Positions 13,211 through 47,658 of a stretch of DNA of 64,000 nucleotides are shown here, piece after piece. Numbering within the stretch: the stretch's first letter is position 1; every line of letters begins with the position of its first letter. The translations under genes were made by a program, and so were the position numbers. The DNA comes from a virus (lineage: Duplodnaviria; Heunggongvirae; Uroviricota; Caudoviricetes): IMG/VR virus record IMGVR_UViG_3300033076_000726, positions 55,240 to 119,239 of that record. One strand, written 5' to 3'. The notes beneath the pieces are model-generated. The model was not told the DNA's origin and searched no databases. It worked only from the letters and a program-made list of their open reading frames with translations.

Positions 13211-13213
13211 AAA

Positions 13214-13912
13214 TTATCTTAAATGTTTTCCTTGGTCATCAAAATACTCATTACCACCACTATCCCCTTTAACGGCATATAAGTTTGCATAACCTTTTAA
13301 TCTTTTTCTTTTTAATTTCTTATCTAATTTCCATATACAATATGGAAAACTAATTTGGTCTCTTGAACTAAATCTACATATTTGTTCCCACCACATTAAC
13401 TGTAATTGTTTAATTACATCTGTGGTTTTTACTATGAATGTCGAAAGTTCGAACAACCCAAATAATTCTGGCATCCCTTTAGATTTGTAGAACGCGAATT
13501 GATTATCAATATTTTGTTGATAGTCCAATCTCCAATGAACACATGCACCCATCTCTTGATATAAACAAGTTCTATCAGGATGTTTAAATAAAAAGATATC
13601 GGTATCGGCACCATACTCATCTATAATCAATTGAGGGTCTTTTTTTAATTGGTGGTTACCATCTTCCCAAATAATATATTCATATTGAGGGAACATTATT
13701 GACGATAAAATTTTATATGGTTTGGCATTTCTTCTATCAGTAAGTCCATCAATGGATGAAAATTCTAATACACTTCTTTGTTCCCAAACTTTAACTGTCT
13801 CGTCTTTCTTATCCACATATGCAATATAATCACAATTGTCAAAAACCTGTGGTGGGTCTAACAATTTATCTTTTCCTCCGGTGATTGCGGTTAATACTAA
13901 GAATTTTTTCAT
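13214..13912 (-). CDS. putative glycosyltransferase (TOD1/DUF616-like)
   Basis: N-terminal FLVLTAITGGKDKLLDP resembles the DUF616 'IYTAIFGxYDxL' start; tentative. Confidence 0.35.
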   Translation of the reverse strand: MKKFLVLTAITGGKDKLLDPPQVFDNCDYIAYVDKKDETVKVWEQRSVLEFSSIDGLTDRRNAKPYKILSSIMFPQYEYIIWEDGNHQLKKDPQLIIDEYGADTDIFLFKHPDRTCLYQEMGACVHWRLDYQQNIDNQFAFYKSKGMPELFGLFELSTFIVKTTDVIKQLQLMWWEQICRFSSRDQISFPYCIWKLDKKLKRKRLKGYANLYAVKGDSGGNEYFDDQGKHLR

Positions 13913-14619
13913 ATTTTTTCGTTTCTACAAAGTACAAGTAATTTATCATTATCCCATCCTGGGGAATATCTATTTTTATGTTCGGTCACAATAAAAGTCA
14001 TTGAATGGAAATACGACTCTAACGGTTCAAAATTCTTTGCGAAATCGTCTTCATTGGTACTTCTAAAAATATCCTCAACAATTAAATAACCACCTGGTTT
14101 TATGTAACGATATGCGTGATATGCGAATAATGTGTTATGAGGTAAATCATGTATCATATCATCAATTATCACATCAAATCCACCACCAGTCGATTGTAAA
14201 CACTCTTCAATTGACTCGGATTTATTAACATCCATGAAATGATATGTAGTGTTTTCTAAATTATCACTAATTGCTTTATTCATGTATGTTTGGTCATATT
14301 CAAATCCATGTAACTCGGCATATGGGAAGTATTCCCTCCAACACTTCATTGACATATTTTCGGCAATACCGCCTTCAGCAAATTTAATTGGTTTGTATCG
14401 TAATGACATAAATAACATATCATATACCGCCATGTATGGATGTCTATGTCCATCATGAACAACATATGGAGATTTATCTGTTGGATATTTTACACCCAAC
14501 TTACATAAATCAGTAATTGAATCTGATGAATCGATTATTAGTTTATTTATTATCATATTGTTCCGTAATATTTGTTTTGTTTTTCTTGTCTTTGTATTGT
14601 TTTGTGATGTTGAATACAA
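13909..14619 (-). CDS. class I SAM-dependent methyltransferase
   Basis: GGGFDVIIDDMIHD...YIKPGGYLIVEDIF (Methyltransf_24-like). Confidence 0.6.
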   Translation of the reverse strand: MYSTSQNNTKTRKTKQILRNNMIINKLIIDSSDSITDLCKLGVKYPTDKSPYVVHDGHRHPYMAVYDMLFMSLRYKPIKFAEGGIAENMSMKCWREYFPYAELHGFEYDQTYMNKAISDNLENTTYHFMDVNKSESIEECLQSTGGGFDVIIDDMIHDLPHNTLFAYHAYRYIKPGGYLIVEDIFRSTNEDDFAKNFEPLESYFHSMTFIVTEHKNRYSPGWDNDKLLVLCRNEKI

Positions 14620-15173
14620 TATTCTTCGTCATCAGGTAAGGAGGCAAATTTACTACCGCCTATAATCCTTTCATGAACTTTACCATACCATCTAAGATGT
14701 TTCTTATAAATTCTACCTTGTCTATCGGGAAAATTTATCCAACCCTTTTCATTTATGTTCCATCTCCAAGTGTCGATATGTTCTTGTGTTATCCCATCTA
14801 CTGTGTTAATACGGGGTACAAAGATTAAGTCTACGTTTGGGTTCATTTCAAGAATGTTATGTAAATTCTCAACCATATATTGACTAATCATCTCATCTGC
14901 GTCAATTTGATAGATATAATCACCAGTACAATAACCGTTTAATATGTTTTTAAAATCGGCAAAATTATCATTCCAATCAAAACATCTCCAAGTTTGAACA
15001 TTTGGTAGTTTATTATACGGTAATAGAAAATTTAATACGTCAGGGTCTCCATTTGTGTTATCATATAGAATCACTATTTCGTCCTGAGGTCTCTTGTAAT
15101 CCAATAAAAACGGGACTAATCTCCTTATTTCCGTCAATTCGTTGCAAATTGTTATTGCGTAACTTATCTTCAT
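14553..15173 (-). CDS. glycosyltransferase family 2
   Basis: MKISYAITICNELTEIRRL...EIVILYDNTNGD, then QIDADE (DxD). Confidence 0.65.
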   Translation of the reverse strand: MKISYAITICNELTEIRRLVPFLLDYKRPQDEIVILYDNTNGDPDVLNFLLPYNKLPNVQTWRCFDWNDNFADFKNILNGYCTGDYIYQIDADEMISQYMVENLHNILEMNPNVDLIFVPRINTVDGITQEHIDTWRWNINEKGWINFPDRQGRIYKKHLRWYGKVHERIIGGSKFASLPDDEEYCIQHHKTIQRQEKQNKYYGTI

Positions 15174-15264
15174 ATTTTCGTTTATTTTCTTCTATCGTTA
15201 ATTCTTCACATCTCCAACACCACTCAGCGTCTTTAGAATCCCAACTGTGTCTTTCACATCTCAT
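15061..15264 (-). CDS. small Zn-ribbon-like protein (uncertain)
   Basis: Internal ATG gives MRCERHSW...AEWCWRCEE (C-x2-H...C-x2-C) with an ATGA overlap onto the upstream ORF stop; overlaps the GT2 start by ~110 nt. Confidence 0.3.
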   Translation of the reverse strand: MRCERHSWDSKDAEWCWRCEELTIEENKRKYEDKLRNNNLQRIDGNKEISPVFIGLQETSGRNSDSI

Positions 15265-15488
15265 GCTCTTTGTCCTCCTATGTCCATCCAACGATTAAAA
15301 TATTCTAAATTAGTATTTAAACGTTGTATTCTACCTTCAAATATTGATGGTACACCATCGTTTATTCTTCTGGTTAATTCATCAATAATATTATTATCAA
15401 TTTCTCTCGCAATTTGTTCGGATAACATATTCGTTAATTCCGTTTCAACATCAACAACAAAGCCACGAAAAAATTTAAAACTATTCAT
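15261..15488 (-). CDS. hypothetical protein, member of the 'SFKF(F/L)RG' N-terminal family
   Basis: MNSFKFFRGFVVDVETEL...; N-terminus similar to the next ORF. Confidence 0.5.
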   Translation of the reverse strand: MNSFKFFRGFVVDVETELTNMLSEQIAREIDNNIIDELTRRINDGVPSIFEGRIQRLNTNLEYFNRWMDIGGQRA

Positions 15489-15738
15489 TTATTCTTTCCC
15501 TCGCAAATATTTTAAATCTTCTACCATTATGTTCGAATGTTATGTTCCCACCGGTTGTTGGTTGTATTGTCATAGTTAATGTATCATGACCCGTACCAAA
15601 CACGTGAGGTTCATCGTCATCGAATTGAAAACAATATTCATTATTTGTGTGAGGTGTGTTTTGTCTTAAAGATAATACCTGCATTGGTTCCAATCTTAAA
15701 AATATATCTTCATCACCTCTTAAAAATTTAAAACTCAT
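15481..15738 (-). CDS. hypothetical protein, tandem paralog (FDDDEP motif)
   Basis: Internal Met MSFKFLRGDED creates an ATGA overlap with the upstream gene; FQFDDDEPHVFG and C-terminal GRRFKIFARER shared with 15735-15998. Confidence 0.5.
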   Translation of the reverse strand: MSFKFLRGDEDIFLRLEPMQVLSLRQNTPHTNNEYCFQFDDDEPHVFGTGHDTLTMTIQPTTGGNITFEHNGRRFKIFARERINE

Positions 15739-15998
15739 TTTTGTTTGGGTCTTGCCCACATTTTAAAAGTCTTACCATTTTCACTATTGGTAAAAGTTAT
15801 AAACGATTGGTTTGTGTTTTGTAATTTAATTACAACTTCATGATTGGTTGAATTATCGTCTGATTGTGCAAACAATTGAGGTTCATCATCGTCAAATTGA
15901 ATCATCCACTCACACGGAGTATAATATTCAATTTCAGGAACATTAAGGTCAAATTCAACCTCAGGAGTTTCAATTTTCTTTTTTCTTGACTTAGCCAT
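15735..15998 (-). CDS. hypothetical protein, tandem paralog (FDDDEP motif)
   Basis: IQFDDDEPQLFA and GKTFKMWARPK match the neighbour. Confidence 0.55.
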   Translation of the reverse strand: MAKSRKKKIETPEVEFDLNVPEIEYYTPCEWMIQFDDDEPQLFAQSDDNSTNHEVVIKLQNTNQSFITFTNSENGKTFKMWARPKQK

Positions 15999-16000
15999 CT

Positions 16001-17257
16001 CTACTTAATTTTATTTAATTTAGGTAAAACTAATTTAGTTTCTTGTGGAATAACCATAAACGGCAAGATTATTGATTTAAACTTATCTTTCATTTTTTCC
16101 ATTGAAAAATTATTAACATTCTCTTCTCTCAAAACTTCAGATTTTTTTATAAACATATCATAATCTTTCTTAACTAATTTTAATACCTCAACAACTTCAC
16201 CATAATTTGCAGTAAACCATTTGGAACCTTTTATTATAAATGAATCAATTGCACTATCGTGAACATCTGTCAATTTACCTCCAACCATAATTGCCTTATC
16301 CATAGGTAAAAAATCTTTATGTCCCGACCAGTTAGATGCAACTATTGGTTTACCCGTCATTGAAAACTCTAACAATGGTCTACCAAACCCTTCACCTTTT
16401 GTTATTGATACCATTGATTTAATTTTTGGGTGGTTATATAGGTCATTCATTTCACTATCTGATAATTCACCAAATAACAAATAAATGGAAGGTGGATTTG
16501 GTATATCACTAACTAATCCTTGAATTTTCTTTCTGAAAGATTCTCTTTCTTTTATTGAAAATCCTGCGGACGATGTTTTTAAAACTAATGCGGGTTTATC
16601 TTCACTATCCTTAAACGCACTTGCAAAACATTTAATCAACATACCCACATCTTTTCTGTCTTGTCCTAAATCACCTTTTAACCAATGACCAACAAAAAGA
16701 TACGCAAAATCTTCCAAAATATCTAATTTAAAGTCATCATTTTTAATGTTGTTATAAACATTAGTATTAACACCTTCAAACAATACTTCAATAGGTTTTT
16801 CGATTCTATGTTGTTTAACTAATTTTCCAGTATTCTTTTCATTTTCATTATAAACAGTTTGTAATAATACATCCTTAGAAAATGTTGATGTGGTGATTAT
16901 CATATCCATTCTATTACAACCATCAACCCAATCTTTTGGTGCAATTGTTGTTTCAATACCCGCAGTAATTCCTATGTTAAATTTACCAACTCTTTGAAAT
17001 TCATTTGGTACTGTGACTTGAATATAAAGTTCGGGTGTCTGATTTAAATTAACTGTTACAATGTTCGATTCAATCCATTTGTGAAATGTATTATCACTTT
17101 CCAATGCGGTCATTGGTGTGGTTCCCCACATACAACTATCAATTTTAATATCAAACAAATCCATCTCATACAATGCTTGTAATAAATCTCTTGAATGTGC
17201 ACCGTACCCACTTCTCGTTTTTACTGGTCCTCTAAATAATAATGTTGGTTTGTTCAT
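16001..17257 (-). CDS. GT-B glycosyltransferase (GT4-like)
   Basis: GEGFGRPLLEFSMTGKPIVASNWSG fits the GT4 E-x7-E segment. Confidence 0.75.
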   Translation of the reverse strand: MNKPTLLFRGPVKTRSGYGAHSRDLLQALYEMDLFDIKIDSCMWGTTPMTALESDNTFHKWIESNIVTVNLNQTPELYIQVTVPNEFQRVGKFNIGITAGIETTIAPKDWVDGCNRMDMIITTSTFSKDVLLQTVYNENEKNTGKLVKQHRIEKPIEVLFEGVNTNVYNNIKNDDFKLDILEDFAYLFVGHWLKGDLGQDRKDVGMLIKCFASAFKDSEDKPALVLKTSSAGFSIKERESFRKKIQGLVSDIPNPPSIYLLFGELSDSEMNDLYNHPKIKSMVSITKGEGFGRPLLEFSMTGKPIVASNWSGHKDFLPMDKAIMVGGKLTDVHDSAIDSFIIKGSKWFTANYGEVVEVLKLVKKDYDMFIKKSEVLREENVNNFSMEKMKDKFKSIILPFMVIPQETKLVLPKLNKIK

Positions 17258-18636
17258 ACTAACTTATATAAATTAAATTTTTCTCTTGGTTTATAATTCA
17301 TCAATGCGGTTTCAATTCCCTCAACCATTTTATCACACATCACTTTTGATGAGAAGTTCTCAATTGCAAATTCACGACCCTTTAATCCTCTTTCTTTTCT
17401 ACCCTCTTTACCCCATGAATAAACTTCACTAATTGCTTGTGCAACATCATAATCGTTTACTCTATCATCAAAAATATAAGGTGTTGGTACCGAACCATTT
17501 ATGTTATTTGCAACTGACCATACTGGTTTAACCCATTCACCATGTTTTGTTGACCCGTGGTCTTTTTTAATATGAAGTGAACCAAATGTAATGTAATTGT
17601 CTGCGGTGTAATTAAAACCACATTGGTCTTGTAAACCTCCTGTTACATTTACAATGATTGGTGTTCCGGCCATTAGACTTTCGACTGTGGTTAAACCGAA
17701 ACCTTCATTGTTTGCAATGTTTATTGTGCAATCAGATGCGTTATATAATTCATTTAATTTATCCTGTTCTAATTTAATGTTGGTAAATTTAACATCGTAG
17801 TCAGGACATAAAGTATCTTTAACTGCATTTAAATCTGTACCATTATCGTCAACTGGTGCGGTGTGCATTAACAATAGACATTTATCAGATTCTTCCTTCG
17901 GTAACATGTCACAAAACAATTTATATGAATATATCACATCACTTGGTTGTTTTCTTCTTATGTTTCTATTGTTGTAAAATAAAATGAATTCATATTTCTT
18001 TTTTGAAAACAAAAACTTATCGAATTCATCTGAAATTTTATCAATCGGTTTGAACACCTCAGGATTTATTCCGTGTGGAACATAACTAATCTGCCAATCT
18101 TCTAAAGGTTTATATGTTGGTTCATCAGTCATTTTACCAACTCTATGAACAATACCATATGTTTGTTTAGATATACAACCAATCCAATCACAACTTTCAT
18201 AGAAATCTCTATTATATTTTGGGTCTGGTAAGTTATCCCATATGTGATAATAAAGTATTGGACATACTTGTCTTATTTCATGTTCATTATCATATAACCA
18301 TTGCCAATAATGTGGGTCGGTGAAATGTAAAATAGCATCTGGTTTTTCTTCTAATAATAATTTTCTAAGAATACCAATATCACCATAACCATTATATGGA
18401 ATTATTTTTAAATTAGCATCCTCAACACCCGTTCTCTTTCTAACATCGTCATTTATATCAACAACTTTTCCAAATTCAGGATGTTTAATTGCCCCACCTA
18501 ATTGAACCCAGTCGTATTTGTCAATTGTACCCAATACGATTTCTTTAGACATGGTGGCAATACCTGACGTCATTCGCAAATCGTCAGATAATAATAATAT
18601 TTTTTTCTTCTTCATTAAATCAATACTTTGAACCAC
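17254..18636 (-). CDS. GT-B glycosyltransferase (GT4-like)
   Basis: NNEGFGLTTVESLMAGTPIIVNVTGG. Confidence 0.75.
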   Translation of the reverse strand: MVQSIDLMKKKKILLLSDDLRMTSGIATMSKEIVLGTIDKYDWVQLGGAIKHPEFGKVVDINDDVRKRTGVEDANLKIIPYNGYGDIGILRKLLLEEKPDAILHFTDPHYWQWLYDNEHEIRQVCPILYYHIWDNLPDPKYNRDFYESCDWIGCISKQTYGIVHRVGKMTDEPTYKPLEDWQISYVPHGINPEVFKPIDKISDEFDKFLFSKKKYEFILFYNNRNIRRKQPSDVIYSYKLFCDMLPKEESDKCLLLMHTAPVDDNGTDLNAVKDTLCPDYDVKFTNIKLEQDKLNELYNASDCTINIANNEGFGLTTVESLMAGTPIIVNVTGGLQDQCGFNYTADNYITFGSLHIKKDHGSTKHGEWVKPVWSVANNINGSVPTPYIFDDRVNDYDVAQAISEVYSWGKEGRKERGLKGREFAIENFSSKVMCDKMVEGIETALMNYKPREKFNLYKLV

Positions 18637-23506: not shown

Positions 23507-24136
23507 ATGAAGTTGTTTACATTCGGAGATAGTTTTAGTGAAGGTTACAATGAGTATGCCATATGGTCAACTTCTTATGTGAAGTGGAAAGGTTATAAAC
23601 CTAAAATATTTTCAGAAATTATATCGGAGAAATTAGGATGTGACCTCATAAATTATGGTGTTGGTGGAAATGATAACTACTCAATTTTGGAATCATTCTT
23701 TAAACATTATTCAGAAATAAAAAGTGATGATATAGTACTAATAAATTGGTCGTCAATTGAAAGGTTTAGAGTTGTAACCAAAAGTGGGGAATGGATTACA
23801 ATGGTGCCAAATTTTAAAAACGTATTAGATGATTTGGACATTTCAGAAAGAACGGTAGAAGAAATGTTTGTTAATAGAATGTCTGATAAGTTTTTAAATG
23901 AGGTAAATTATTGGATTGATTATATTAACCTAACAAACACCCACAATACCATAATTCATTGGACACCGTTTACCACTAAATTAAATTGTTATCCTTTTGG
24001 TGGTTATCACACAATAGGTGATGAAACGAATTTTGAATTGGTTGATGGTCATTTTTCGGAAAAGGGTCAAAAGCAATTGGCAGAAGACATAATGAAAATT
24101 ATACAAACAAAATCAGAAAGAAAAAATTTAATATGA
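23507..24136 (+). CDS. SGNH/GDSL hydrolase
   Basis: N-terminal FTFGDSFSEG (GDSx block I); distal DGHFSEKG (DxxH block V-like). Confidence 0.65.
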   Translation: MKLFTFGDSFSEGYNEYAIWSTSYVKWKGYKPKIFSEIISEKLGCDLINYGVGGNDNYSILESFFKHYSEIKSDDIVLINWSSIERFRVVTKSGEWITMVPNFKNVLDDLDISERTVEEMFVNRMSDKFLNEVNYWIDYINLTNTHNTIIHWTPFTTKLNCYPFGGYHTIGDETNFELVDGHFSEKGQKQLAEDIMKIIQTKSERKNLI

Positions 24137-25179
24137 ATACATTAGACATCAAATATCAAGAACTATTACAAGATATCATCGATAATGGGATTGTTAAAAC
24201 CGATAGAACGGGAACTGGTACTATATCAGTATTCGGTCGTCAAATTCGTCATAAGATGTCCCAAGGTTTCCCATTACTTACAACTAAAAAGATGGCGTGG
24301 AAAACAATGGTAATTGAATTGTTATGGTTTTTACGTGGAGACACAAATATAAAATATCTGATTGATAATGGTTGTCACATTTGGGATGGGGATGCTTATA
24401 AGAATTACCAAAAGAAAATGACCGAATGGTTTGGTAATGAAAGTCAACTAACCAAAGAACTATTTGTTGATAAAATCAAAACCGATGATGAGTTTGCAGA
24501 AAAATGGGGTGAATTAGGACCAATCTATGGTAAGCAATGGAGAGATTGGACTAAACCAAATCACACTTGGGGAACAGACCAAATCCAAAACTTAATTAAC
24601 GAACTTAAAACAAATCCTGATAGTAGAAGGTTAATGGTATCGGCTTGGAATGTAGGTGAGTTAGACCAAATGGTTTTACCACCTTGTCATTATGGATTTC
24701 AAGTTTATACTAGAGAGTTAAATATTGAAGAAAGATTAGATTTAGCATCAAAAACTTATGGTAATTTATTTGAGCCGTTTGATTTCCACAAAGTAGACCA
24801 TGAAGAAATTGATAAATTATATCCGGTCCCAAAACGAGCAATCTCTTTAATGTGGAATCAAAGAAGTGTGGATACATTTTTAGGTTTACCATTTAATATC
24901 GCATCATATGGTTTATTATTGGAAATTATATCCAAAGAGGTGGGTATGGTTCCAGATGAGTTGATTGGTAATTTGGGAGACGTTCATTTATACTCAAACC
25001 ATATTGAACAGGCAAAAGAACAAATTAGTAGAGAACCTTTTAAGAATCTACCATTATTGAAAATAGAAGAAAATGTTAAAAGATTGGAAGGTGATTCCTT
25101 ACCGATGTATAAATTAGAGGATTTTACATTAGTAAATTATGAATCACACCCAACAATTAAAGCACCTTTATCAAATTAG
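24133..25179 (+). CDS. thyA: thymidylate synthase (ThyA family) with two insertions
   Basis: TDRTGTGT, LPPCH (catalytic Cys), QRSVDTFLGLPFNIASY; ~40-aa inserts between IWDGDA...GELGPIYG and between FQVYT...ISLMWNQRS. Confidence 0.9.
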   Translation: MNTLDIKYQELLQDIIDNGIVKTDRTGTGTISVFGRQIRHKMSQGFPLLTTKKMAWKTMVIELLWFLRGDTNIKYLIDNGCHIWDGDAYKNYQKKMTEWFGNESQLTKELFVDKIKTDDEFAEKWGELGPIYGKQWRDWTKPNHTWGTDQIQNLINELKTNPDSRRLMVSAWNVGELDQMVLPPCHYGFQVYTRELNIEERLDLASKTYGNLFEPFDFHKVDHEEIDKLYPVPKRAISLMWNQRSVDTFLGLPFNIASYGLLLEIISKEVGMVPDELIGNLGDVHLYSNHIEQAKEQISREPFKNLPLLKIEENVKRLEGDSLPMYKLEDFTLVNYESHPTIKAPLSN

Positions 25180-25859: not shown

Positions 25860-27719
25860 ATGGAGGAAATATATACCGAAAAATTTAGTCATGCAACTAT
25901 CACGTTATTTAGAGATTATTCTAAATTAACTGAAAAGAAAACCTCACTTAATTCAATGCATGTCAACTTGGATGGGTTTGAAGACGAGGAGGAATTTTTT
26001 GATGATTCGTATACAACTAATGAAAAATTGTTGTCCTCTGTTCTTAGGGAACCGGAACCAGTAAAAGGAAGGGTAGTCAATTTCCCAACTAAAAACGGTA
26101 AAAAGAAAACGCATTTCTTTTATGAGAATAGTGACGTGGTTGAAAGATTCAACCTAAATTTTGCTATTTACGAATTTGATACTATAAATGACAGACAAAT
26201 AAAAAGACACTATGGTAATCCATTTTCGGAGGTTACAATAACAACAACCGAAAGGTCAGTTAGAAAATTTGGGGATAAGGTTACCATTAAAATCTATCAC
26301 GGCTCAAAGTATAGAAAATTCAATTCAATTTATTTTAAAAAGAGTTACCACGTGTTTTCGGTAACTATAAACACGAAGACCGGTAATTTCACAATATTAG
26401 AAAAGAGTAAAAATGGACGAAACTCCAATTCAAAATTTAGAACAAACTCTTTTATGATGTTGAATAACACCGCAATATCCAATTATTCATTTTTTAATGT
26501 TGCTAAGAATTTCAAAAAGAAATCTAGGTTATATAATGAAATGATAAATTCATTTAATGATGTTGAATTCACCTCAAAAATACATGAGTTATTATTTGGT
26601 AACAAACCAAAATTATTTGTAAACTATACAACAAACCCAAATAAATTTACAACCGATTTAATGTCATTCTTTGTTGAAAAGAAACAAATAAGAATTCCTG
26701 ATGGTGACATTGAATATCTTTTGTCTAAATTTTACCCTACCGAAAAGTATCTTAAAAAGAACGATAGAAAATTAGTTGCATCGGTATTAGACACTATCGG
26801 TTTAAAATCAAAATCAACAATCAAAATTGTACACAAATACCCTAACATAGATTTGGAAGGTCTTCATTGGTTATGCAATAGATTGGGAGATAACTACTCA
26901 AAGTATTTGGGTAATCTAAACGATGATGTTTTAAGTAGGTCATCAAGAACAGATACACCATATTCATATGGTGGTATAACTAAAGAAACATTATTACATT
27001 TTTCTTCACAACAAAGATATACACCATTATCTGATATTGAAAAGGAAAATTTAATCAGAGTATTGTCTGATGATAGTACTAATAGAAATATATTATCGGG
27101 ACAATCTATAAGAATGTATGATGACCATTTTAATATGATTGACAAAATAAGAAAATACATTCCCGATATCTTCATGAAAGCAAAAAGCATGAAAGAGTTC
27201 AATGAAGAACATAGAGAACTTTCAAAAATATTAAGCGGGATTAGAAAGGGATGGGTAATTGAATATCAATACGATGAGAAAACATTAAAAGATATTGAAG
27301 AACCTATTCAATGTTTATATGACGATAAGTCTTTACATACATTGTATCCTGTCATTTTGAAAAGAGAAGAAGAATATGTTGAAGAAGGTGATTTCATGCA
27401 CCATTGTGTTGCATCATATGCAGATAAAGATAAGTCAATGATTGTATCTTTAAGAAATGAAGATGGTTCAGATAGGGTTACTGTGGAATATGAAATTCAA
27501 AATGGTAAACCAATACAAAAAAGACATTTCTGTAATAAAGTTCCACCTGAAACATTTAATGATGGGTTATTGTTGTTAGATGATAAAATTAGATTACACG
27601 CAAGATGGGGTACATTAAATTGGAAGGAGAAAAAGAAAGTACCGGTAAAAATAAATGGGATGGAAATAAATTTAGACGATAGGGGACCCAGACAAGCCGA
27701 ATTTAGATTACCTTTTTAA
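25860..27719 (+). CDS. hypothetical protein, paralog family member A
   Basis: 619 aa; C-terminal ...FMHHCVASYADKDKSMIVSLRNEDG...VTVEYEIQNGKPIQ is shared with 27750-29150 and 48445-49449. Confidence 0.6.
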   Translation: MEEIYTEKFSHATITLFRDYSKLTEKKTSLNSMHVNLDGFEDEEEFFDDSYTTNEKLLSSVLREPEPVKGRVVNFPTKNGKKKTHFFYENSDVVERFNLNFAIYEFDTINDRQIKRHYGNPFSEVTITTTERSVRKFGDKVTIKIYHGSKYRKFNSIYFKKSYHVFSVTINTKTGNFTILEKSKNGRNSNSKFRTNSFMMLNNTAISNYSFFNVAKNFKKKSRLYNEMINSFNDVEFTSKIHELLFGNKPKLFVNYTTNPNKFTTDLMSFFVEKKQIRIPDGDIEYLLSKFYPTEKYLKKNDRKLVASVLDTIGLKSKSTIKIVHKYPNIDLEGLHWLCNRLGDNYSKYLGNLNDDVLSRSSRTDTPYSYGGITKETLLHFSSQQRYTPLSDIEKENLIRVLSDDSTNRNILSGQSIRMYDDHFNMIDKIRKYIPDIFMKAKSMKEFNEEHRELSKILSGIRKGWVIEYQYDEKTLKDIEEPIQCLYDDKSLHTLYPVILKREEEYVEEGDFMHHCVASYADKDKSMIVSLRNEDGSDRVTVEYEIQNGKPIQKRHFCNKVPPETFNDGLLLLDDKIRLHARWGTLNWKEKKKVPVKINGMEINLDDRGPRQAEFRLPF

Positions 27720-29257: not shown

Positions 29258-30235
29258 ATGAAAAAAGAACACGTATTTTTATCTCTATTTGCTGGTTATG
29301 GCGGGTCAAGATTATCTGCTGAGTATGCTGGATTAAATGTTGTTAAACATTACAGTAGTGAAGTGGAAGAGTCTTCAATCAAAGTATTGAACGCAAATTT
29401 TCCCGATACTATTCAAGTTGGTGATGTTCGTAATCTTAAACCCGAAGATTTTTTAGATGTAACCGTTATTGATGGAGGTTCACCATGTCAATGTCTATCA
29501 TTTATGGGTAAGAAAAAAGGTTTCTCAACCACAACTGAGATTGACATTTTAACTTTAGAACATTATGAACAATTGGTATCTGAAGGATTTGAATTCGAAG
29601 GTCAATCATATTTGTTTTGGGAATTCGTTAGGTTATATCGTGGTATTCGCGACCTACAAATTGAAAGAGGTTTACCAGTTCTTAATTTCTTGTTAGAAAA
29701 CGTTAAGATGACAAAGAAGTGGGAGAATGTTATTAGTGACGCGTTAGGTGTTAAACCAATTGTATTTGACGCAGCTCGTGTTTGGGGACAAAGTCGTATT
29801 CGTTTATTTTGGACAGATATTGAAGGAGTACAAGTACCTGAAGATAGAGGAATAACAATTGGTAATATTGTTAATGGTGCAAAGAATGGTGTTGGTTTTA
29901 GAGGTCGTAAAGGTAAAGATGGAAAATATTTTTATCCGAAAACAACTCGAATTGATGGTAAATCAAATTGTTTAGTTACACAACTTGGTTCAACAAATAG
30001 AAAGGGTGAATCATTTGGCACAGGATTTTATGAGACAGAATCTGGTGAGATTAAACAATTAACCATTATGGAAGCGGAAGTACTTCAAGGACTTAAAGCG
30101 GGATATACTAACGTTGAAGGTGTGACCGCAACCAAAAGAATCAAGATGATTGGTAACGGATGGTGTATTCCAGTGACTGGTCACATCTATAGTTTCTTAA
30201 ATAATAAACAAATTTTGAAATCTCAGAAAAAATAA
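29258..30235 (+). CDS. C5-cytosine DNA methyltransferase
   Basis: FAGYGG (motif I), GGSPCQ (motif IV PC), LLENV (motif VI). Confidence 0.9.
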   Translation: MKKEHVFLSLFAGYGGSRLSAEYAGLNVVKHYSSEVEESSIKVLNANFPDTIQVGDVRNLKPEDFLDVTVIDGGSPCQCLSFMGKKKGFSTTTEIDILTLEHYEQLVSEGFEFEGQSYLFWEFVRLYRGIRDLQIERGLPVLNFLLENVKMTKKWENVISDALGVKPIVFDAARVWGQSRIRLFWTDIEGVQVPEDRGITIGNIVNGAKNGVGFRGRKGKDGKYFYPKTTRIDGKSNCLVTQLGSTNRKGESFGTGFYETESGEIKQLTIMEAEVLQGLKAGYTNVEGVTATKRIKMIGNGWCIPVTGHIYSFLNNKQILKSQKK

Positions 30236-32788: not shown

Positions 32789-33070
32789 ATGCCAGAATTT
32801 ACAGCAGAAGTTGACATCGACCCAAGTGAGTTCATTGACTCATGTAGTAAAAGTGAAAGAAAAAGATTAGTTGAAATCTTAATTGAAGACGGCGACATCG
32901 ACCCACCACAGGATGAAGTGTGGAAAAATAATGGAGTTAAAAACCCCAACATAAACGATTTGACGTTTTGGAATAGTTTAGACCATTTAAAAAAATGTAG
33001 GGACTTATTGTCAATTCACGAAGAAAACTACATCAATAACATGGCGGCGAAGTATAAACACTTACGTTAA
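32789..33070 (+). CDS. hypothetical acidic protein
   Basis: 93-aa ORF. Confidence 0.5.
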   Translation: MPEFTAEVDIDPSEFIDSCSKSERKRLVEILIEDGDIDPPQDEVWKNNGVKNPNINDLTFWNSLDHLKKCRDLLSIHEENYINNMAAKYKHLR

Positions 33071-33780
33071 TGAAGGTATTGGAATTGTTTGCGGGCAGTC
33101 GCTCGGTTGGTAAAATTTCCGAAAGTTTAGGGATGGAAGTTTTTTCATCTGACTTGGTTGAATTTGAAGGGATTCATTATCCAATTAGTATATTGGATTT
33201 TGATGTAAAGAAAGTACCGTTTAAACCAGATGTTATTTGGGCATCACCCCCATGTACAAGTTTTAGTGTTGCATCATTAGGACACCATTGGACTGGAGGT
33301 AAAGGTGCTTACATTCCTAAAACAGATGGCGCAAGATTAGGTATCGAGTTAGTTAAGAAAACAATAGAAATAATAGAACATTTTAATCCAAGATATTGGT
33401 TCATGGAAAATCCAAGAGGAGTACTTCGTAAAATGCCATTCATGGCAGACTTTAAACGACACACAGTAACATATTGTCAATATGGTGATGAACGAATGAA
33501 ACCAACTGACATATGGACCAATAGCAATATGTGGGTTCCTCGTCCAATGTGTAAGAATGGTGACCCTTGTCATGTTGCAGCACCAAGAGGTTCTAAAACG
33601 GGAACACAAGGCAGAAGTAACGCATATGAAAGAAGTAAAATTCCTGAACAGTTATGTTTAGAAATATTATCAAGTTGTATGAATAATGACAAACCGTTTT
33701 ATTGTTCTGTTGAAGATGATGGTGGAGATAGATGTGACAAACAATGTAACAGATGTCGAATGACTGAAGAAAATGAGTAA
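33070..33780 (+). CDS. C5-cytosine DNA methyltransferase (compact)
   Basis: LELFAGSRSVG (motif I-like), ASPPCTSFSVAS (PC motif IV), FMENPRG (ENV-like), Cys-rich C-terminus. Confidence 0.8.
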   Translation: MKVLELFAGSRSVGKISESLGMEVFSSDLVEFEGIHYPISILDFDVKKVPFKPDVIWASPPCTSFSVASLGHHWTGGKGAYIPKTDGARLGIELVKKTIEIIEHFNPRYWFMENPRGVLRKMPFMADFKRHTVTYCQYGDERMKPTDIWTNSNMWVPRPMCKNGDPCHVAAPRGSKTGTQGRSNAYERSKIPEQLCLEILSSCMNNDKPFYCSVEDDGGDRCDKQCNRCRMTEENE

Positions 33781-40645: not shown

Positions 40646-42793
40646 ATGGCAGAACTTTACAATTACAGAAAGGAAGAATCTAAACCAAGACCAATGGATT
40701 TCAATGCTGAGGATAAACACCTCGACATGATGAGAGCCATTGCACCTTTCGCAAAAGCTAAGGTTCAAGAAAACGTCACAGACGTTGAGATTATACCGAG
40801 TACCAAAAATACAAAATTAGCACTTGTGTTAATGCCCGAGTGGTCACCTAACTTTCCGCCATTTAGTATTGCTCGTTTATCTGCCGTTTCAAGAAAGGCC
40901 GGTTATAATACTAAGTGTTTCGATTTTAATGTTAAAGTACATAATGAATCTCGTAAATGGTTATTGGAAAATAAAATTGACTTTGACCCCTTTGATGGTG
41001 CTCGTGAATGGAAATGGAATCCACCACATTACTACGAAGAAATTCACCAACATACGGAACCATTATTTAAAGAGTACCTAAAAGATATTATGGCATTTGA
41101 CCCTGATGTTGTTGGGTTTACATTATATTATTGTAATGAACAACCGGTTAAGTGGATGATGACCGAGTTAAAGAAACTAAAACCATCAATAAAAATATTA
41201 TTAGGGGGACCACACGTTGCGTTGAGACAATATCAATTCTTAGACCCTAATGATTATCCACAAGGTGTAATTGATTATGCGGTTAATGGTGAAGGTGAAA
41301 TGATTTTGTTACAAATATTAAATGAAATAGAAAAGGGTGTGGTTCATCCAACGATGCAATATTTGGCACAACCTGAAAACCAAAGATTAAATTTAAATAA
41401 TCTACCATTACCTGATTATTCAACATTTGATTTTAATGAGTATGTTTATCCAAACGGAGTTAACACAGAATTCAGTAGAGGTTGTATTGCTAAATGTTCT
41501 TTCTGTGAAGAAACACATTTTTGGAAGTATAGACAAAGACAGGCGGTTGATGCGATAACGGAAATCGAATGGTTATATTATAACAAAGGTACCGATGTTA
41601 TTTGGTTCATTGATAGTTTAGTTAATGGTAACTTAAATGAATTAAGAGCATTTTGTAAAGGTGTTGTTGCAAAGGGAATGAAGATACATTGGACGGGTTA
41701 TGCTAGACATGATGGTCGAATGGATTTAGAATATTATAAAGACTTGAAGGCGGGTGGTTGTGAGATGTTGAGTTATGGTTGTGAATCTGGTAGTCAGAAA
41801 GTACTTAACGATATGTTAAAAGGAGTTACCATTCAAGAAATGGAAGATAACTTGGCATCGGGTAAAGTTGTTGGTGTTGGTGGATTGACGAACTGGATTG
41901 TAGGTTTCCCAACTGAAGACTATGAAGACTTTGGACACACGATGAGTTTCATTTGGAGAAATAGAAACACAAGTATATTAACAATTGCGGCTGGTTTTGG
42001 TTTTGGATTAGGTGTTAATACGGTTGCCGGACAAAACATTGAACGTTTCAATATATCACCATTCTTTTACTTAGGTAGTTGGATGAGAGATGATTATAAA
42101 TTATCTAAGATACATGTTTTGAATAGAGTAAAATCATTTGCGATATTCTTACAAAATATGAAAAGTGAAGAACCGATTAGTGTACCGTGGAGACCTAACT
42201 TACCTGAGTTTCATTACACACTAACATTTGACAATCCCGATAAACTAATTGAGATTGATTATGAAACTGGTTTTGATTACAATATCATTAAACCTAACAT
42301 TAGTAATTTCGCAGATAGTTTAGTTAACGAAATGTTTGTTCTGTTTAGATTATTTTGGAGAACAAGGGGTGGATTTGAGATTCATTTAAAATATGATGAG
42401 GAGTTGGATATGATTGAATTTGGTGCTAGAAATGCTGGACCATATTGGGCTGACCATCATTTTAAGATAGATGATGAAGGTAAGTGGACATATAAATGTA
42501 AACATAAATTTACACAACCGGCATATGACCCTGTTGAAAGAATTCCATTTAGATTAGAAGACTATTCATATACTAAATTAAATGCATCGACAAGAGCAAG
42601 AAAAATTGCAAAACCAAGATGGGGTGAAGAAGGTAGACCTGACCCCGAATTTAAACAACTAGAAATACAACTATTTCACATGAATAGTAATGTTGATTTT
42701 AGTTTTGAATATGAGTGGGAAGGTTCGGGAGATTGGTCAAATAAACCAGTCGAAGAAATTACCCCATTACCAAATAAAAAGACATTGATATGA
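40646..42793 (+). CDS. B12-binding (class B) radical SAM enzyme with long C-terminal extension
   Basis: N-terminal B12-binding-like LALVLMPEW...DVVGFTLYY...KILLGGPH; radical SAM FSRGCIAKCSFCEE (CxxxCxxC). Confidence 0.8.
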   Translation: MAELYNYRKEESKPRPMDFNAEDKHLDMMRAIAPFAKAKVQENVTDVEIIPSTKNTKLALVLMPEWSPNFPPFSIARLSAVSRKAGYNTKCFDFNVKVHNESRKWLLENKIDFDPFDGAREWKWNPPHYYEEIHQHTEPLFKEYLKDIMAFDPDVVGFTLYYCNEQPVKWMMTELKKLKPSIKILLGGPHVALRQYQFLDPNDYPQGVIDYAVNGEGEMILLQILNEIEKGVVHPTMQYLAQPENQRLNLNNLPLPDYSTFDFNEYVYPNGVNTEFSRGCIAKCSFCEETHFWKYRQRQAVDAITEIEWLYYNKGTDVIWFIDSLVNGNLNELRAFCKGVVAKGMKIHWTGYARHDGRMDLEYYKDLKAGGCEMLSYGCESGSQKVLNDMLKGVTIQEMEDNLASGKVVGVGGLTNWIVGFPTEDYEDFGHTMSFIWRNRNTSILTIAAGFGFGLGVNTVAGQNIERFNISPFFYLGSWMRDDYKLSKIHVLNRVKSFAIFLQNMKSEEPISVPWRPNLPEFHYTLTFDNPDKLIEIDYETGFDYNIIKPNISNFADSLVNEMFVLFRLFWRTRGGFEIHLKYDEELDMIEFGARNAGPYWADHHFKIDDEGKWTYKCKHKFTQPAYDPVERIPFRLEDYSYTKLNASTRARKIAKPRWGEEGRPDPEFKQLEIQLFHMNSNVDFSFEYEWEGSGDWSNKPVEEITPLPNKKTLI

Positions 42794-43443
42794 TAAAGAT
42801 AGATGATAATATAAGAGTGTGGATAACATCTGACACTCATTACGCCCACAAAAATATATGTCGTGGTGTAACTAATTGGAGATTACCTAATGGTGATATT
42901 CCTGAAAAACAAACACGACCTTTTGAGACAATTGAAAAGATGAATTCAGCAATTGTTAATAACATTAACGAAGTTGTTGGACAAGATGATATTCTAATTC
43001 ACTTAGGTGATTGGAGTTTTGGTGGATTTGAAAACATTGAAGAATTCCATAACAGATTGATTTGTAAGAACATACATTTGATTCTGGGTAATCATGACCA
43101 TCACATTGATAGAAATAGAGGGGATGTTAAAAAACTTTTTATGAGTGTGAGTTGGTTTGACCAATTTGAATATCAAGGAGAAACAATCGAGATGTGTCAT
43201 TACCCAATATCAAGTTGGAACGGACTTCGTAAAGGACGTATACATTTACATGGACATTGCCATTTACCTTTCGATAAAAAGATTAGTAATGGTCGTCGTA
43301 TGGATGTTGGTATGGATGGTAGTTTAGAATTTGCACCATATGATTTAAAAGATGTAATTAAAGCACTCAAAAGACATCAAATAGGTTCTGAATTGGGTAC
43401 TGATGACCATCATATGGATGATATTGTTGGAATTGTTGGATAA
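42790..43443 (+). CDS. calcineurin-like metallophosphoesterase
   Basis: ITSDTHYAH, LGDWSFGG, GNHDHH, HLHGHCH metal-binding motifs. Confidence 0.8.
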   Translation: MIKIDDNIRVWITSDTHYAHKNICRGVTNWRLPNGDIPEKQTRPFETIEKMNSAIVNNINEVVGQDDILIHLGDWSFGGFENIEEFHNRLICKNIHLILGNHDHHIDRNRGDVKKLFMSVSWFDQFEYQGETIEMCHYPISSWNGLRKGRIHLHGHCHLPFDKKISNGRRMDVGMDGSLEFAPYDLKDVIKALKRHQIGSELGTDDHHMDDIVGIVG

Positions 43444-44510: not shown

Positions 44511-44861
44511 ATGAAAGAAACATTAAAAAAAACATTTAACCCAAAAATATTGTCAGTAGTTGGGGTTGTACTCGGAATTATTTTGATTTTTGAATTCATA
44601 GTATTTCCAGGATTAACCGCTTCAGATACAATATTAAACATTATTTCATTATTACTCGGCGGATTCTCAATTCTTTTCGCTTTCCATTTTATTCAATGGA
44701 AAAATCTATTTGATTTTTTATCAGAAGAGGATGAAAAACCAATTCCACCGGGAGAAACAGAACTCGATTATCTACCCAAAGAAGAGGTGATTAAAAAGAA
44801 AAGAGCGACTAAAAAGAAACCAGAACCACATGTAGTTCATCCAAAAGTAAAAAGAAAATAA
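44511..44861 (+). CDS. membrane protein with Lys-rich tail
   Basis: ATG at 44511 (the track start is TTG); two TM helices then KKKRATKKKPEPHVVHPKVKRK. Confidence 0.45.
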   Translation: MKETLKKTFNPKILSVVGVVLGIILIFEFIVFPGLTASDTILNIISLLLGGFSILFAFHFIQWKNLFDFLSEEDEKPIPPGETELDYLPKEEVIKKKRATKKKPEPHVVHPKVKRK

Positions 44862-44862
44862 T

Positions 44863-45348
44863 ATGGAATATAACATAATTGAAGGGGATTTAATTGAATT
44901 GGCAAAGAATAAACAATTCGATGTTATAACACACGGTTGTAATTGTTTCAATGCAATGGCTGGAGGATTAGCACCACAAATGGCTAGAGCGTTTGGTTGT
45001 GATAGATTCTTTCTTGAAAGTAAAAGGTTCGAAGGAATGAAAGAAAAGTTGGGTAAAATTGATTGGGAATATAATACCAAATATAGATTGTTTGTTGTTA
45101 ATTCCTATACACAATATAGACCAGGACCGGATTTCAGACTAAATGCACTTAAATCGTGTTTAAAAAGTATGAATAGAATATTTGCGGGTAAACATATTGG
45201 ACTACCAAAGATTGGTGCGGGTATTGGTGGTGGTGATTGGGGTGCGATTGAATCTGCAATAAAAAGTAATTTAAGAAATTGTGATGTGACAGTTGTTACA
45301 TTTACACCAACACCATTAACAACCACATCACCTATTTTAACAAAATAA
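44863..45348 (+). CDS. macro domain protein (TARG1/OARD1/DarG-macro-like)
   Basis: DVITHGCNCFNAMAGGLAPQMARAFG resembles the HC(I/N)...MGxGIA...F segment of TARG1-type macro domains. Confidence 0.65.
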   Translation: MEYNIIEGDLIELAKNKQFDVITHGCNCFNAMAGGLAPQMARAFGCDRFFLESKRFEGMKEKLGKIDWEYNTKYRLFVVNSYTQYRPGPDFRLNALKSCLKSMNRIFAGKHIGLPKIGAGIGGGDWGAIESAIKSNLRNCDVTVVTFTPTPLTTTSPILTK

Positions 45349-45349
45349 T

Positions 45350-45706
45350 ATGGAAATTTTATTAGTATTAACAATTCTATTATTGATTTTAGAAGTTTCT
45401 ACCATTGCAACATATGGTTGGTACATTAAAGATGATGTTGTGTTTGATTATCTATATGAATTTGAACCGTTTGAAAAAAATCCATTTGATAATAAAATAC
45501 TGGGACCGGTTCTTAATGTTGATGGGGATATAAAAAAAATGATTCATAGAGCAAAAAATGGTAAATATATTTCACACACACCGTTTTCACCTTTAAGTAA
45601 GTACCATATTTCAGGTAAGGGACCAATTTTAAGATGGACAGAGGCACATAAAGTAATTAACAATTTGTATAAAACAACTAAAACAAAACAATATGGCGAA
45701 ATTTGA
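45350..45706 (+). CDS. hypothetical protein with N-terminal TM
   Basis: 118 aa; overlaps the SPFH gene start. Confidence 0.5.
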   Translation: MEILLVLTILLLILEVSTIATYGWYIKDDVVFDYLYEFEPFEKNPFDNKILGPVLNVDGDIKKMIHRAKNGKYISHTPFSPLSKYHISGKGPILRWTEAHKVINNLYKTTKTKQYGEI

Positions 45707-46637
45707 TAGATACAATAACCGATGGGATAATCGAGGTAATCGTAGGTCCGAGGAAGAATTGGACCTAATGGAAGAAGAATTTAATAACGAACAAACAATT
45801 AAAATTAAAAAAACAATGAAAACAATTGTAACAGGTGTGGTGGGATTTTTCCTAATTATTTTTCTTTTCTTTTCATGTGAAAGAATTGATGCTGGACACG
45901 TTGGTGTAAAGGTAAACTTATATGGTGATAATAAAGGTGTAAGTGATGTAACTGAAGTTACTGGTATGGTATTCTTTAATCCAATCACTCACAACATTTA
46001 TGAATTCCCAACATTTATTCAACACAAAGAATATACTGGCGACAATTCATTCATCGTAAACAGTAGAGACGGTAGTGAGTTCCACGTATCTCCAATCATC
46101 AACTACTCAGTACAAAGAGAAAAGGTACCACAAATCTTTGCTAAGTATCGTAGAAGTTTAGAACAGATTGAAGAAGGGTTCTTAAAGACCGCAGTATTCG
46201 ACGCGTTTAGATTAGCAACAAACAAATATACCGCAGATGAATTGATTAGTAATCGAGCTCAATTTGAGATTGAAGTTCGTAAGTTATTGGAAGGTCAATT
46301 GTTACATGAAGGGTTTGTTGTAAATCAATTTACATCTAATCTATTATATCCTGAATCATTTAAGAACGCAATAAACGCCAAGAACAATGCGGTTCAAGCT
46401 GCTTTGATGGCAGAGAATAAAGTTAAACAAGCTGAAGCTGAAGCTAAGATTAAAGTGGCAACCGCTGAAGGTAACGCTCAGGCGATGTTAACAACCGCTA
46501 AGGCTGAGTCTGAAGCAAACAGAATGAAACAATCTACTTTGAATTCATTATTGTTACAACAATTGTGGATTGAAAAATGGGACGGAAAGTTACCGGTTTA
46601 CGGTCAAACCCCACAATTATTTAAAGGAGTTAACTAG
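45693..46637 (+). CDS. SPFH/band-7 (prohibitin/flotillin-like) membrane protein
   Basis: N-terminal TM, then IDAGHVGVKVNLYG SPFH core and a C-terminal Ala/Glu-rich coiled coil. Confidence 0.8.
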   Translation: MAKFDRYNNRWDNRGNRRSEEELDLMEEEFNNEQTIKIKKTMKTIVTGVVGFFLIIFLFFSCERIDAGHVGVKVNLYGDNKGVSDVTEVTGMVFFNPITHNIYEFPTFIQHKEYTGDNSFIVNSRDGSEFHVSPIINYSVQREKVPQIFAKYRRSLEQIEEGFLKTAVFDAFRLATNKYTADELISNRAQFEIEVRKLLEGQLLHEGFVVNQFTSNLLYPESFKNAINAKNNAVQAALMAENKVKQAEAEAKIKVATAEGNAQAMLTTAKAESEANRMKQSTLNSLLLQQLWIEKWDGKLPVYGQTPQLFKGVN

Positions 46638-46648
46638 TAGTTCATAAA

Positions 46649-46680
46649 CCCCGATTAGGACATTCCCATCGGGGTTTTTT
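46649..46680 (+). terminator. rho-independent terminator
   Basis: ccccgat-(12 nt)-atcgggg then tttttt. Confidence 0.55.
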
Positions 46681-46831
46681 CTATTCTTTTGTTATATTTA
46701 TTTACATGACAAAAGCAGAAAAAAAGAAGAAGAATAGAATCAAAATGGGTAAAGAAACCCGTAAGATGAATCAAAAGAAGGGACTTCATAAGAAAAAAAC
46801 CTAATAATCAGTATTTATATATAAAAAAGAC

Positions 46832-47187: not shown

Positions 47188-47658
47188 ATGAACACAAAAT
47201 ACAAAATCTATTGTGACATGGACGGAGTTCTTGTCGACTTTGATAAAGGTTACTTTGAATTAACAGGTCACCAACTTGATGGTACACATCGTAATGACGA
47301 AAATTTTTGGGACCCGATAAACAAAGCGGGTTATGACTTTTGGGCAAACTTAAAATGGATGTCAGATGGTAAAAGATTGTGGAATTATATAAAAAAATAT
47401 AATCCTGAAATATTATCCGCACCATCAAGACAACCAGAATCGAGAGTGGCTAAACACGACTGGATTAACAAAGAATTACCAGGTGTTCATTTAATACTTC
47501 GTAGTGCTAAACATAAGAAAGATTTTGCAACCCCCACATCAATTTTGATTGACGATAGAATTGACAACATTCAAGGATGGAGAGATGCGGGTGGAATCGG
47601 TATTCATCATGTTAGTGCAAAACACACAATTGACCAACTAAAAGTTTTAGACTTATAA
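47188..47658 (+). CDS. 5'(3')-deoxyribonucleotidase (HAD, NT5C family)
   Basis: KIYCDMDGVLVDF (motif I) matches the NT5C-family start. Confidence 0.75.
   Translation: MNTKYKIYCDMDGVLVDFDKGYFELTGHQLDGTHRNDENFWDPINKAGYDFWANLKWMSDGKRLWNYIKKYNPEILSAPSRQPESRVAKHDWINKELPGVHLILRSAKHKKDFATPTSILIDDRIDNIQGWRDAGGIGIHHVSAKHTIDQLKVLDL

Follow-up and report, generated by a model that had tools for sequence, protein, structure and literature searches.

The counter-defence roles of the phage macrodomain family phrog_335 were reported only in 2025-2026. In phage T4, tk.4 was the one gene that a transposon screen showed to be required on a host expressing DarTG2, and a clean tk.4 knockout was DarTG2-sensitive; the gene was named AdfM (bioRxiv 10.1101/2025.11.20.689424, a 2025 preprint). 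In a second study, 15% of NARP1 operons, whose products Adps and Namat rebuild nicotinamide adenine dinucleotide (NAD+), were reported to carry a macrodomain gene (Osterman et al., bioRxiv 10.64898/2026.01.28.702374). The enzyme in question, Adpp, dephosphorylates ADP-ribose-1''-phosphate (ADPR-1''-P), the product of the RES-domain defence aRES, for use by NARP1; this activity was shown biochemically for Vibrio phage Gary, and Adpp was defined there as a macrodomain gene within two genes of the NARP1 pair (bioRxiv 10.64898/2026.01.28.702374). Among cellular macrodomains, SCO6735 of Streptomyces coelicolor has a glutamine (Gln85) and lacks both catalytic residues of human TARG1/OARD1, takes DarT-made ADP-ribose off thymidine in single-stranded DNA faster than DarG or TARG1, and rescues DarT toxicity, its activity being abolished by the Q85A, Q85E and N27S substitutions (PMC9411070). 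Here a stand-alone macrodomain gene of the Tk.4/AdfM type is described at 44863..45348 (plus strand) of a 64,000-nucleotide stretch, referred to below as the window, of the IMG/VR Caudoviricetes record IMGVR_UViG_3300033076_000726. It adds a divergent member to phrog_335, probably from a Bacteroidota phage, and with moderate confidence its product is proposed to act as an AdfM-type ADP-ribosyl hydrolase that counters DarT on phage DNA.

Family, fold and active site of the macrodomain protein

The macrodomain gene starts with ATG and encodes 161 amino acids (aa), the stop codon being included in the above coordinates. The open reading frame (ORF) is present exactly as the first-pass annotation gave it, with the segment DVITHGCNCFNAMAGGLAPQMARAFG forming residues 20-45. 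Comparison with an 82%-identical relative (in L004) gives a dN/dS of 0.12, which indicates purifying selection, and identical copies of the protein occur in 23 assembled contigs. The ORF is a real gene and the single macrodomain gene within the window.

Its product matches the phrog_335 profile, which carries the label "phosphatase", with an E-value of 8.9e-46, and aligns with T4 Tk.4 at 34% identity over 154 aa (BLASTP, E 2e-27; residues 6-149 against 6-153). The motifs HGCNCF, YTQ(Y/F)xPGP(D/N)F and P(K/R)IGAGIG.G(D/N)W are common to both proteins. A large protein collection contains 802 homologues, and tblastn with the protein finds matches in 2237 isolate phage records, the T4-like gene tk.4 among them; the protein is a typical representative of a widespread phage family, that of the T4 Tk.4 macrodomains. 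Its score against the Pfam Macro family (PF01661) is below the gathering cutoff (19.2 versus 22 bits), the subfamily being a divergent one that phrog_335, profile searches and fold comparison recognise where Pfam does not. The DarG model of PADLOC matches at E 7e-8, and the NCBIfam model antitoxin_DarG scores 25.2 bits versus a cutoff of 250, with the match confined to profile positions 90-150.

The AlphaFold2 model, computed from 121 sequences, has the three-layer alpha/beta/alpha macro fold, with a predicted local distance difference test score (pLDDT) of 91.2 and a predicted template modelling score (pTM) of 0.85. Disorder is predicted only in the Thr/Pro-rich C-terminal tail (residues 148-161; 45304..45345, plus strand), where pLDDT falls to 52-63 in the last blocks and below 50 at residues 152-154. 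Foldseek gives a probability of 1.0, and its top solved structures are TARG1, BT1257, yeast Poa1p and DarG macrodomains at a TM-score of ~0.72 (TARG1: E 1.4e-9, TMq 0.72), while a search of the viral models in BFVD gives a TMq of 0.83 for the tk.4 protein of Acinetobacter phage 133. In sequence searches of the PDB, BT1257 of Bacteroides thetaiotaomicron comes out nearest (E 1e-7 with the single sequence, 1e-16 with the family profile), followed in the family-profile search by TARG1, SCO6735 and DarG. The PDB ranking of the protein itself (BT1257, then Poa1p and SCO6735) is similar to that of Tk.4, a point in favour of the AdfM type, whereas a Thalassavirus Adpp ranks TARG1 first. The family-profile and Foldseek matches bear out the original assignment to a stand-alone macrodomain of the ALC1-like/TARG1/DarG class, and the H...MG.GIA...F core that had been pointed out is indeed common to this protein and TARG1, both in the alignment and in Foldseek. 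Within the ALC1-like macrodomains, the protein can be placed in the branch with a glutamine at the catalytic lysine position (Gln-type), as judged by sequence comparison. The top structural match in BFVD is a Marseillevirus protein annotated as "SNF2 subfamily protein" (A0A481YV05; 36% identity over the aligned region, TMq 0.80).

The active site was compared in an alignment (A2) with T4 Tk.4, BT1257, SCO6735, TARG1, the Thermus (Taq) and Mycobacterium (Mtb) DarG proteins and PhiKZ gp104, in which most relatives lack the C-terminal tail. His24-Gly25-Cys26-Asn27 form the HGCN motif (44932..44943, plus strand), whose role is assigned by analogy with the SCO6735 mutagenesis; Asn27 aligns with Asn27 of SCO6735 and Asn22 of Taq DarG, and His24 with His24 of SCO6735 and His32 of TARG1. 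Gln84 sits at the position of TARG1 Lys84, Taq DarG Lys80, PhiKZ Lys78 and SCO6735 Gln85, and the same Gln is carried by T4 Tk.4 and BT1257. Together with Gln84, the short 13-residue loop QYRPGPDFRLNAL (45112..45150, plus strand) corresponds to the "mobile loop" of SCO6735. The elements expected for ADP-ribose binding are present as well, with N27 following beta-strand 2 and the glycine-rich diphosphate-binding loop Pro115-Trp126, PKIGAGIGGGDW (45205..45240, plus strand), aligning with the P-R-I-G-C-G-L-A-G-G loop; Gly122 occupies the position of TARG1 Asp125. In the 121 family sequences H24, G25, N27, Q84 and P115 are invariant, with conservation of 90% or more for G118, G120, G123, G124 and W126. 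The H-G-N-Q site is also kept in 142 of 146 viral relatives.

Equivalents of TARG1 Lys84/Asp125 and DarG Lys80 are absent from the protein (Gln84 and Gly122), and the first-pass annotation had held that such an absence would point to a binding-only macrodomain; such a protein would be an ADP-ribose reader or sponge without catalysis. This rule is misconceived, because SCO6735 has a Gln here yet strips DarT-made ADP-ribose, and because the His24/Asn27/Gln84 site is also that of T4 Tk.4, the loss of which makes T4 sensitive to DarTG2. The family shows no variation in the replacing Gln, Asn and His, SCO6735 depends on the aligned Gln85 and Asn27 for catalysis, and both Tk.4 and Adpp are functional, the latter being enzymatically active. 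A protein that merely binds ADP-ribose is therefore very improbable, and annotation by the presence of a catalytic Lys/Asp would discard all Gln-type members in error.

The likeness to SCO6735 and BT1257 extends to Gln in place of the catalytic Lys, to Asn27 and His24, and to a GxGG.W motif where TARG1 has GLDRLQW. The differences are a low overall identity (~22-24%), Gly25 for Val/Ile25 (Gly25 being invariant in the phage family), Gly34 for Lys34, a loop that is 5-6 residues shorter (13 versus 18-19 residues), and Arg86 and Arg92 instead of the Lys89/Lys93 pair; in addition, SCO6735 and BT1257 are cellular rather than phage proteins. Human TARG1 shows 16-21% identity and differs by Lys84 to Gln84, Asp125 to Gly122, and a Ser at the position of Asn27. 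The DarG2 macrodomain and PhiKZ gp104 have an ALC1-like macro fold and the conserved Asn (Taq N22), and the functional analogy proposed for them is the removal of DarT2 ADP-ribose from DNA; however, they are Lys-type (FPTK; Taq K80, PhiKZ K78) where the window protein has Gln, and are 17-24% identical to it. Unlike DarG2, the window protein is single-domain, with neither a DarT-binding C-terminal domain nor an adjacent darT gene.

The name AdfM has been used by two independent studies (PMC13309987; bioRxiv 10.1101/2025.11.20.689424) for different macrodomain subclades, the AdfM of the chimallivirus PhiKZ (gp104) being Lys-type and DarG2-like, and that of T4 (Tk.4) being Gln-type and BT1257/SCO6735-like. 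PhiKZ gp104, with its FPTK motif, matches Mtb DarG at E 1e-24 and is 17% identical to the window protein, to which it is an analogue from another subfamily. Annotation pipelines could conflate the two subclades.

Loop type and association with NARP1 genes

As an alternative to an anti-DarT role, the protein may be of the Adpp type, converting ADPR-1''-P made by the RES-domain aRES to ADP-ribose, with NAD+ then rebuilt by NARP1 encoded elsewhere in the phage or by host salvage. The Adpp of phage Gary is a macrodomain of the same family, with its activity demonstrated biochemically, and Vibrio phage Quinn, of the same genus as Gary, has the same Adps-macro-Namat operon. Quinn gp175, used here as a proxy for Adpp, matches the window protein at 31% identity (E 1e-16) and is Gln-type at the key position; the two are alike in the conserved H.CN and Q and in their phage counter-defence context. 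The best fold matches include Poa1p, itself an ADPR-1''-P phosphatase, and a related phage with NARP1 has, inside that operon, a homologue of the 118-aa gene that neighbours the macrodomain gene in the window. Gene context provides a further argument for Adpp. When 80 IMG/VR loci of the closest viral relatives (42-55% identity) were fetched and their neighbours clustered, genes similar to phosphoribosyl pyrophosphate synthetase (Adps-like) were found within 6 kb of the macrodomain gene in 45 loci and NAPRTase-family (Namat-like) genes in 41, often in the strict order Adps-macro-Namat. Within the same distance, Nuc_deoxyri_tr2 genes occur at 23, NADAR genes at 21 and SPFH genes at 3 of the 80 loci.

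The window itself differs from these loci in both context and loop. Among its ORFs, profiles built from the neighbour families detected no Adps, Namat, NADAR or Nuc_deoxyri_tr2 (Ndt2), whereas Adpp is a macrodomain gene within two genes of the NARP1 pair. The loop class, an operational feature defined in this analysis, is given by the residues after the active-site Gln. A 13-residue loop of the form Q(Y/F)xPGP(D/N)xxxxAL is found in the window protein, in eight of its closest relatives (P0001-P0004 and P0006-P0009) and in T4 Tk.4, the letters being QYRPGPDFRLNAL in the window protein versus QFQPGPNFEYSAL in Tk.4. In members linked to NARP1 the loop ranges from 16 to 21 residues and is mostly a Q(Y/F)xYGxNHxDGxxxP(L/F)DYEA(L/F) stretch of 21; that of Quinn Adpp has 20. 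A scan with the short-loop pattern added 66 further viral loci, mostly from T4-like genomes of 155-175 kb, and in these loci no Adps-like and no NADAR gene and a single Namat-like gene were present. After dereplication into lineages at 90% identity, with neighbours counted within 3 kb, none of the 37 short-loop lineages (13 residues) had a NARP1 or NADAR gene, while among the 47 long-loop lineages (19-21 residues) a NARP1 gene was found in 33 and NADAR in 14. The link between loop type and NARP1 has a Fisher's exact p of 2e-12, a value that overstates independence as the lineages are related. Around the two short-loop relatives on longer contigs (P0006 and P0008), no NARP1 was found within 10 kb, and DNA-metabolism genes were present instead.

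These data weigh against Adpp in several ways. Whereas the Adpp gene is flanked by Adps and Namat and its product carries a loop of 20-21 residues, the window protein is stand-alone and has a short loop of the class that is NARP1-linked in 0 of 37 lineages. It scores 87.8 bits to T4 Tk.4 and 59.3 bits to Quinn Adpp. The demonstrated substrate of Adpp is the free metabolite ADPR-1''-P rather than DNA, and a phosphatase for this metabolite would bring no obvious benefit without NARP1. An Adpp-type function is thus considered unlikely, albeit the leading alternative.

It may be that loop length after the Gln, taken together with NARP1 linkage, separates the AdfM-type (anti-DarT) from the Adpp-type (NAD+-salvage) members, and such a rule could be applied to thousands of phage genes annotated only as "phosphatase", a modest and testable addition. 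A more far-reaching scenario is that phrog_335 is split into two functional types by the post-Gln loop, the long loops (19-21 residues) marking ADPR-1''-P phosphatases in NARP1 operons and the short Q..PGP.. loops marking DNA de-ADP-ribosylases (AdfM), with the window protein as a recent switch or a dual-function intermediate. The latter suggestion stems from the observation that the protein is closest overall to members of a group that includes NARP1-linked proteins and belongs to a phage group with NARP1-bearing relatives, yet possesses the T4-type short loop and no NARP1 nearby. Dual activity would be chemically plausible, as both known activities cleave the C1'' substituent of the distal ribose. 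This scenario as a whole is regarded as speculative and rather unlikely.

Three other lines of evidence were considered and set aside. Phylogeny could not decide between AdfM and Adpp, as both Quinn Adpp and T4 Tk.4 fall on long branches at the outside of a neighbour-joining tree with the loop masked. Adjacency to NADAR was dropped as support for an anti-DarT function, since all NADAR links belong to the long-loop NARP1 type (14 of 47 lineages, versus 0 of 37 for the short loop). Net charge and isoelectric point (pI), taken as a proxy for DNA binding, are not discriminating, with pI values of 9.1 for the window protein, 5.9 for T4 Tk.4 and 9.1 for Quinn Adpp.

The long-loop relatives are found in compact "NAD/ADP-ribose islands" (L015-L089; e.g. 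L058:5115-9500, L065:5047-10569 and L075:3582-7661), which contain Adps-like, macrodomain and Namat-like genes and often a NADAR gene abutting the macrodomain gene, plus Nuc_deoxyri_tr2. Two recurrent families of ~134 and ~138 aa, to which no function is assigned, are present in 22 and 21 of the 80 loci, respectively.

Proposed AdfM-type role

Of the characterised phage proteins, T4 Tk.4 is like the window protein in being stand-alone, ~155-160 aa long and collinear over its full length, in the HGCN...Q residues, the 13-residue Q(Y/F)xPGP(D/N) loop and the IGAGIG.G.W loop, and in having no NARP1 link. Aside from their 34% identity, the two differ in that the window phage is AT-rich and probably infects Bacteroidota whereas T4 is a Straboviridae coliphage, in the Thr/Pro-rich tail of the window protein, and in their unrelated gene neighbourhoods. 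Given the full-length homology to Tk.4 and the genetic anti-DarTG2 evidence for the latter, the anti-DarT counter-defence suggested by the first-pass annotation is the best-supported reading, although the second function of the family, Adpp, had been overlooked there. AdfM is preferred over Adpp because the window lacks NARP1 genes and because the short Q-x-x-P-G-P-D/N loop is as in T4 Tk.4.

In the proposed AdfM-type role, the protein would be a small cytoplasmic ADP-ribosyl hydrolase and an orphan, antitoxin-like counter-defence factor. A host toxin of the DarT2 type would ADP-ribosylate thymidines in single-stranded phage DNA; the macrodomain enzyme would then bind the ADP-ribose and hydrolyse the bond between ribose C1'' and the base, releasing ADP-ribose and restoring replicable DNA. 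The presumed substrate is thus ADP-ribosyl-thymidine in DNA, and the presumed target a DarTG2-like defence. If SCO6735 is taken as the model for catalysis, the diphosphate would be held by the glycine-rich loop 115-126, and Gln84, locked by Asn27, would position the distal ribose and the transition state. The attack would be made by a backbone-positioned water, with no Lys or Asp nucleophile.

A number of observations weigh against this assignment. The evidence for T4 tk.4 is only genetic and comes from a preprint, and the window protein is just 34% identical to Tk.4 as compared with 45-57% to its metagenomic relatives, many of which lie between Adps and Namat; by their neighbourhood, many close relatives look like Adpp. 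In the loop-masked neighbour-joining tree the protein is not grouped with T4 Tk.4, and the short loops are scattered (P0008, P0009). The loop-context counts are dominated by related T4-like genomes and their lineages are not phylogenetically independent. The absence of NARP1 applies to the 64-kb window, which is part of the phage genome, and a phage of the same group (L163) carries NARP1. Finally, Val25, Lys34 and the long, lysine-bearing mobile loop of SCO6735 are not conserved, their counterparts being Gly25, Gly34 and the short loop.

Another possibility is a broad mono-ADP-ribosyl hydrolase acting on proteins or RNA, with DNA not being the specific substrate. Such an enzyme would reverse other host ADP-ribosyltransferase (ART) toxins or defences, or tune the phage's own transferases, comparable to Alt, ModA and ModB of T4. 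Proteins are also among the substrates that SCO6735 and TARG1 de-modify, the top structural matches include TARG1 and Poa1p, and T4, the bearer of Tk.4, encodes three ARTs itself. On the other hand, no ART was detected in the window by jackhmmer searches that started from Alt, ModA and ModB of T4, which is a weak test owing to low sensitivity and to coverage of only part of the genome, and the sole phenotype reported for a short-loop family member is anti-DarTG2. A broad specificity of this kind is accordingly held to be improbable in comparison with the AdfM-type role.

Variable gene slot and source phage

The macrodomain gene is located in a run of co-directional genes. Upstream, a 116-aa membrane protein is encoded at 44511..44861 (plus strand), with its ATG at 44511 (the mechanical ORF begins at TTG 44481; the gene is called as 116 aa in the identical contigs) and its stop 1 nt before the macrodomain ATG; searches of Pfam and PHROG gave no above-threshold family match for this protein. 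Downstream, a 118-aa protein with a hydrophobic N-terminal segment (45350..45706, plus strand) has its ATG one base after the macrodomain stop, and its gene overlaps that of a 314-aa SPFH/Band_7 protein (45693..46637, plus strand; Pfam Band_7 E 3e-20, phrog_200 E 7e-66). The gene run ends at an intrinsic-terminator-like hairpin with a T-run (46646..46681, plus strand). The earlier description of an N-terminal-transmembrane and an SPFH/band-7 neighbour at 45350-46637 is in agreement with these ORFs and with the Pfam match, and the strong terminator noted behind them is supported by RNAfold of 46636-46690 (-18.6 kcal/mol, z = -4.7, no shuffled sequence as stable, U-run following). A consensus terminator scanner missed the hairpin, as its loop exceeds 8 nt.

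The 82%-identical relative retains the Metallophos...macro...Band_7 synteny. In the related phage L165, counterparts of the Metallophos, 116-aa membrane and SPFH genes are present at 75-81% identity (membrane and SPFH 75-77%), but the macrodomain gene is absent, and unrelated ORFs of 67 and 88 aa occupy the slot of the macrodomain and 118-aa genes (L165:8445-10262). For the 118-aa protein, no more than 10 homologues could be detected. In L163 (5001-5354) and L164 (1023-1376) the homologue lies between Namat (NAMPT_N/NAPRTase) and Adps, within a NARP1 cluster, which hints at an uncharacterised NARP1-associated accessory protein; in L165 it is located elsewhere. A functional module of the macrodomain, transmembrane and SPFH genes was ruled out, given that SPFH is present at 3 of the 80 loci, that L165 has no macrodomain gene and that 118-aa homologues occur elsewhere. 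The membrane and SPFH neighbours are incidental and not conserved partners of the macrodomain gene. The slot is a variable accessory-gene site and the macrodomain gene is an accessory gene, its variable presence being typical of accessory anti-defence genes and broadly in keeping with counter-defence.

This variability also bears on the possibility of metabolite clean-up, for instance by an O-acetyl-ADP-ribose deacetylase that takes no part in evading host defences. The source annotations of homologues read "O-acetyl-ADP-ribose deacetylase", and the top PDB matches 4j5q and 4j5r are named O-acetyl-ADP-ribose deacetylase 1 (that is, TARG1); however, these names are automatic annotations and not tests. 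A gene that is accessory and variable among close relatives is unlike a housekeeping function, and both characterised phage members of the family serve counter-defence. Metabolite clean-up is therefore deemed quite improbable.

The window has a GC content of ~31% and densely packed co-directional ORFs. A scan for tRNAs found none in the window, and megablast of the region against isolate phages gave no match. The best isolate matches of the macrodomain protein are from Cellulophaga phages, and those of the SPFH protein from crAss-like Bacteroides phages and Prevotella Lak phages; the source is probably a large phage of a Bacteroidota host. A sigma-70 promoter scan was uninformative (24 matches versus 17.5 expected); the host probably uses promoters that are not of the sigma-70 type. 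Matches to phage families in the window include thymidylate synthase, DNA methyltransferases, glycosyltransferases, radical-SAM enzymes, a phosphoesterase and a deoxyribonucleotidase.

Several other loci of the window may be mentioned. At 40646-43443, the gene of a 715-aa B12-binding radical-SAM protein overlaps by 4 nt with that of a calcineurin-like phosphoesterase (phrog_547, E 2e-43) which comes after it, and this pair is conserved in related contigs (L007). The genes for thymidylate synthase (phrog_160, E 6e-113), two DNA methyltransferases and a 5'-3' deoxyribonucleotidase (NT5C-like) are located at 24133-25179, 29258-30235, 33070-33780 and 47188-47658. A minus-strand block at 7556-18636 contains an aminotransferase (phrog_3139, E 1e-56) and two glycosyltransferases, and may represent a pathway of sugar modification that targets DNA or the cell surface. 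At 25860-27719, a 619-aa protein has a C-terminal PcfJ-like domain (Pfam E 1e-12).

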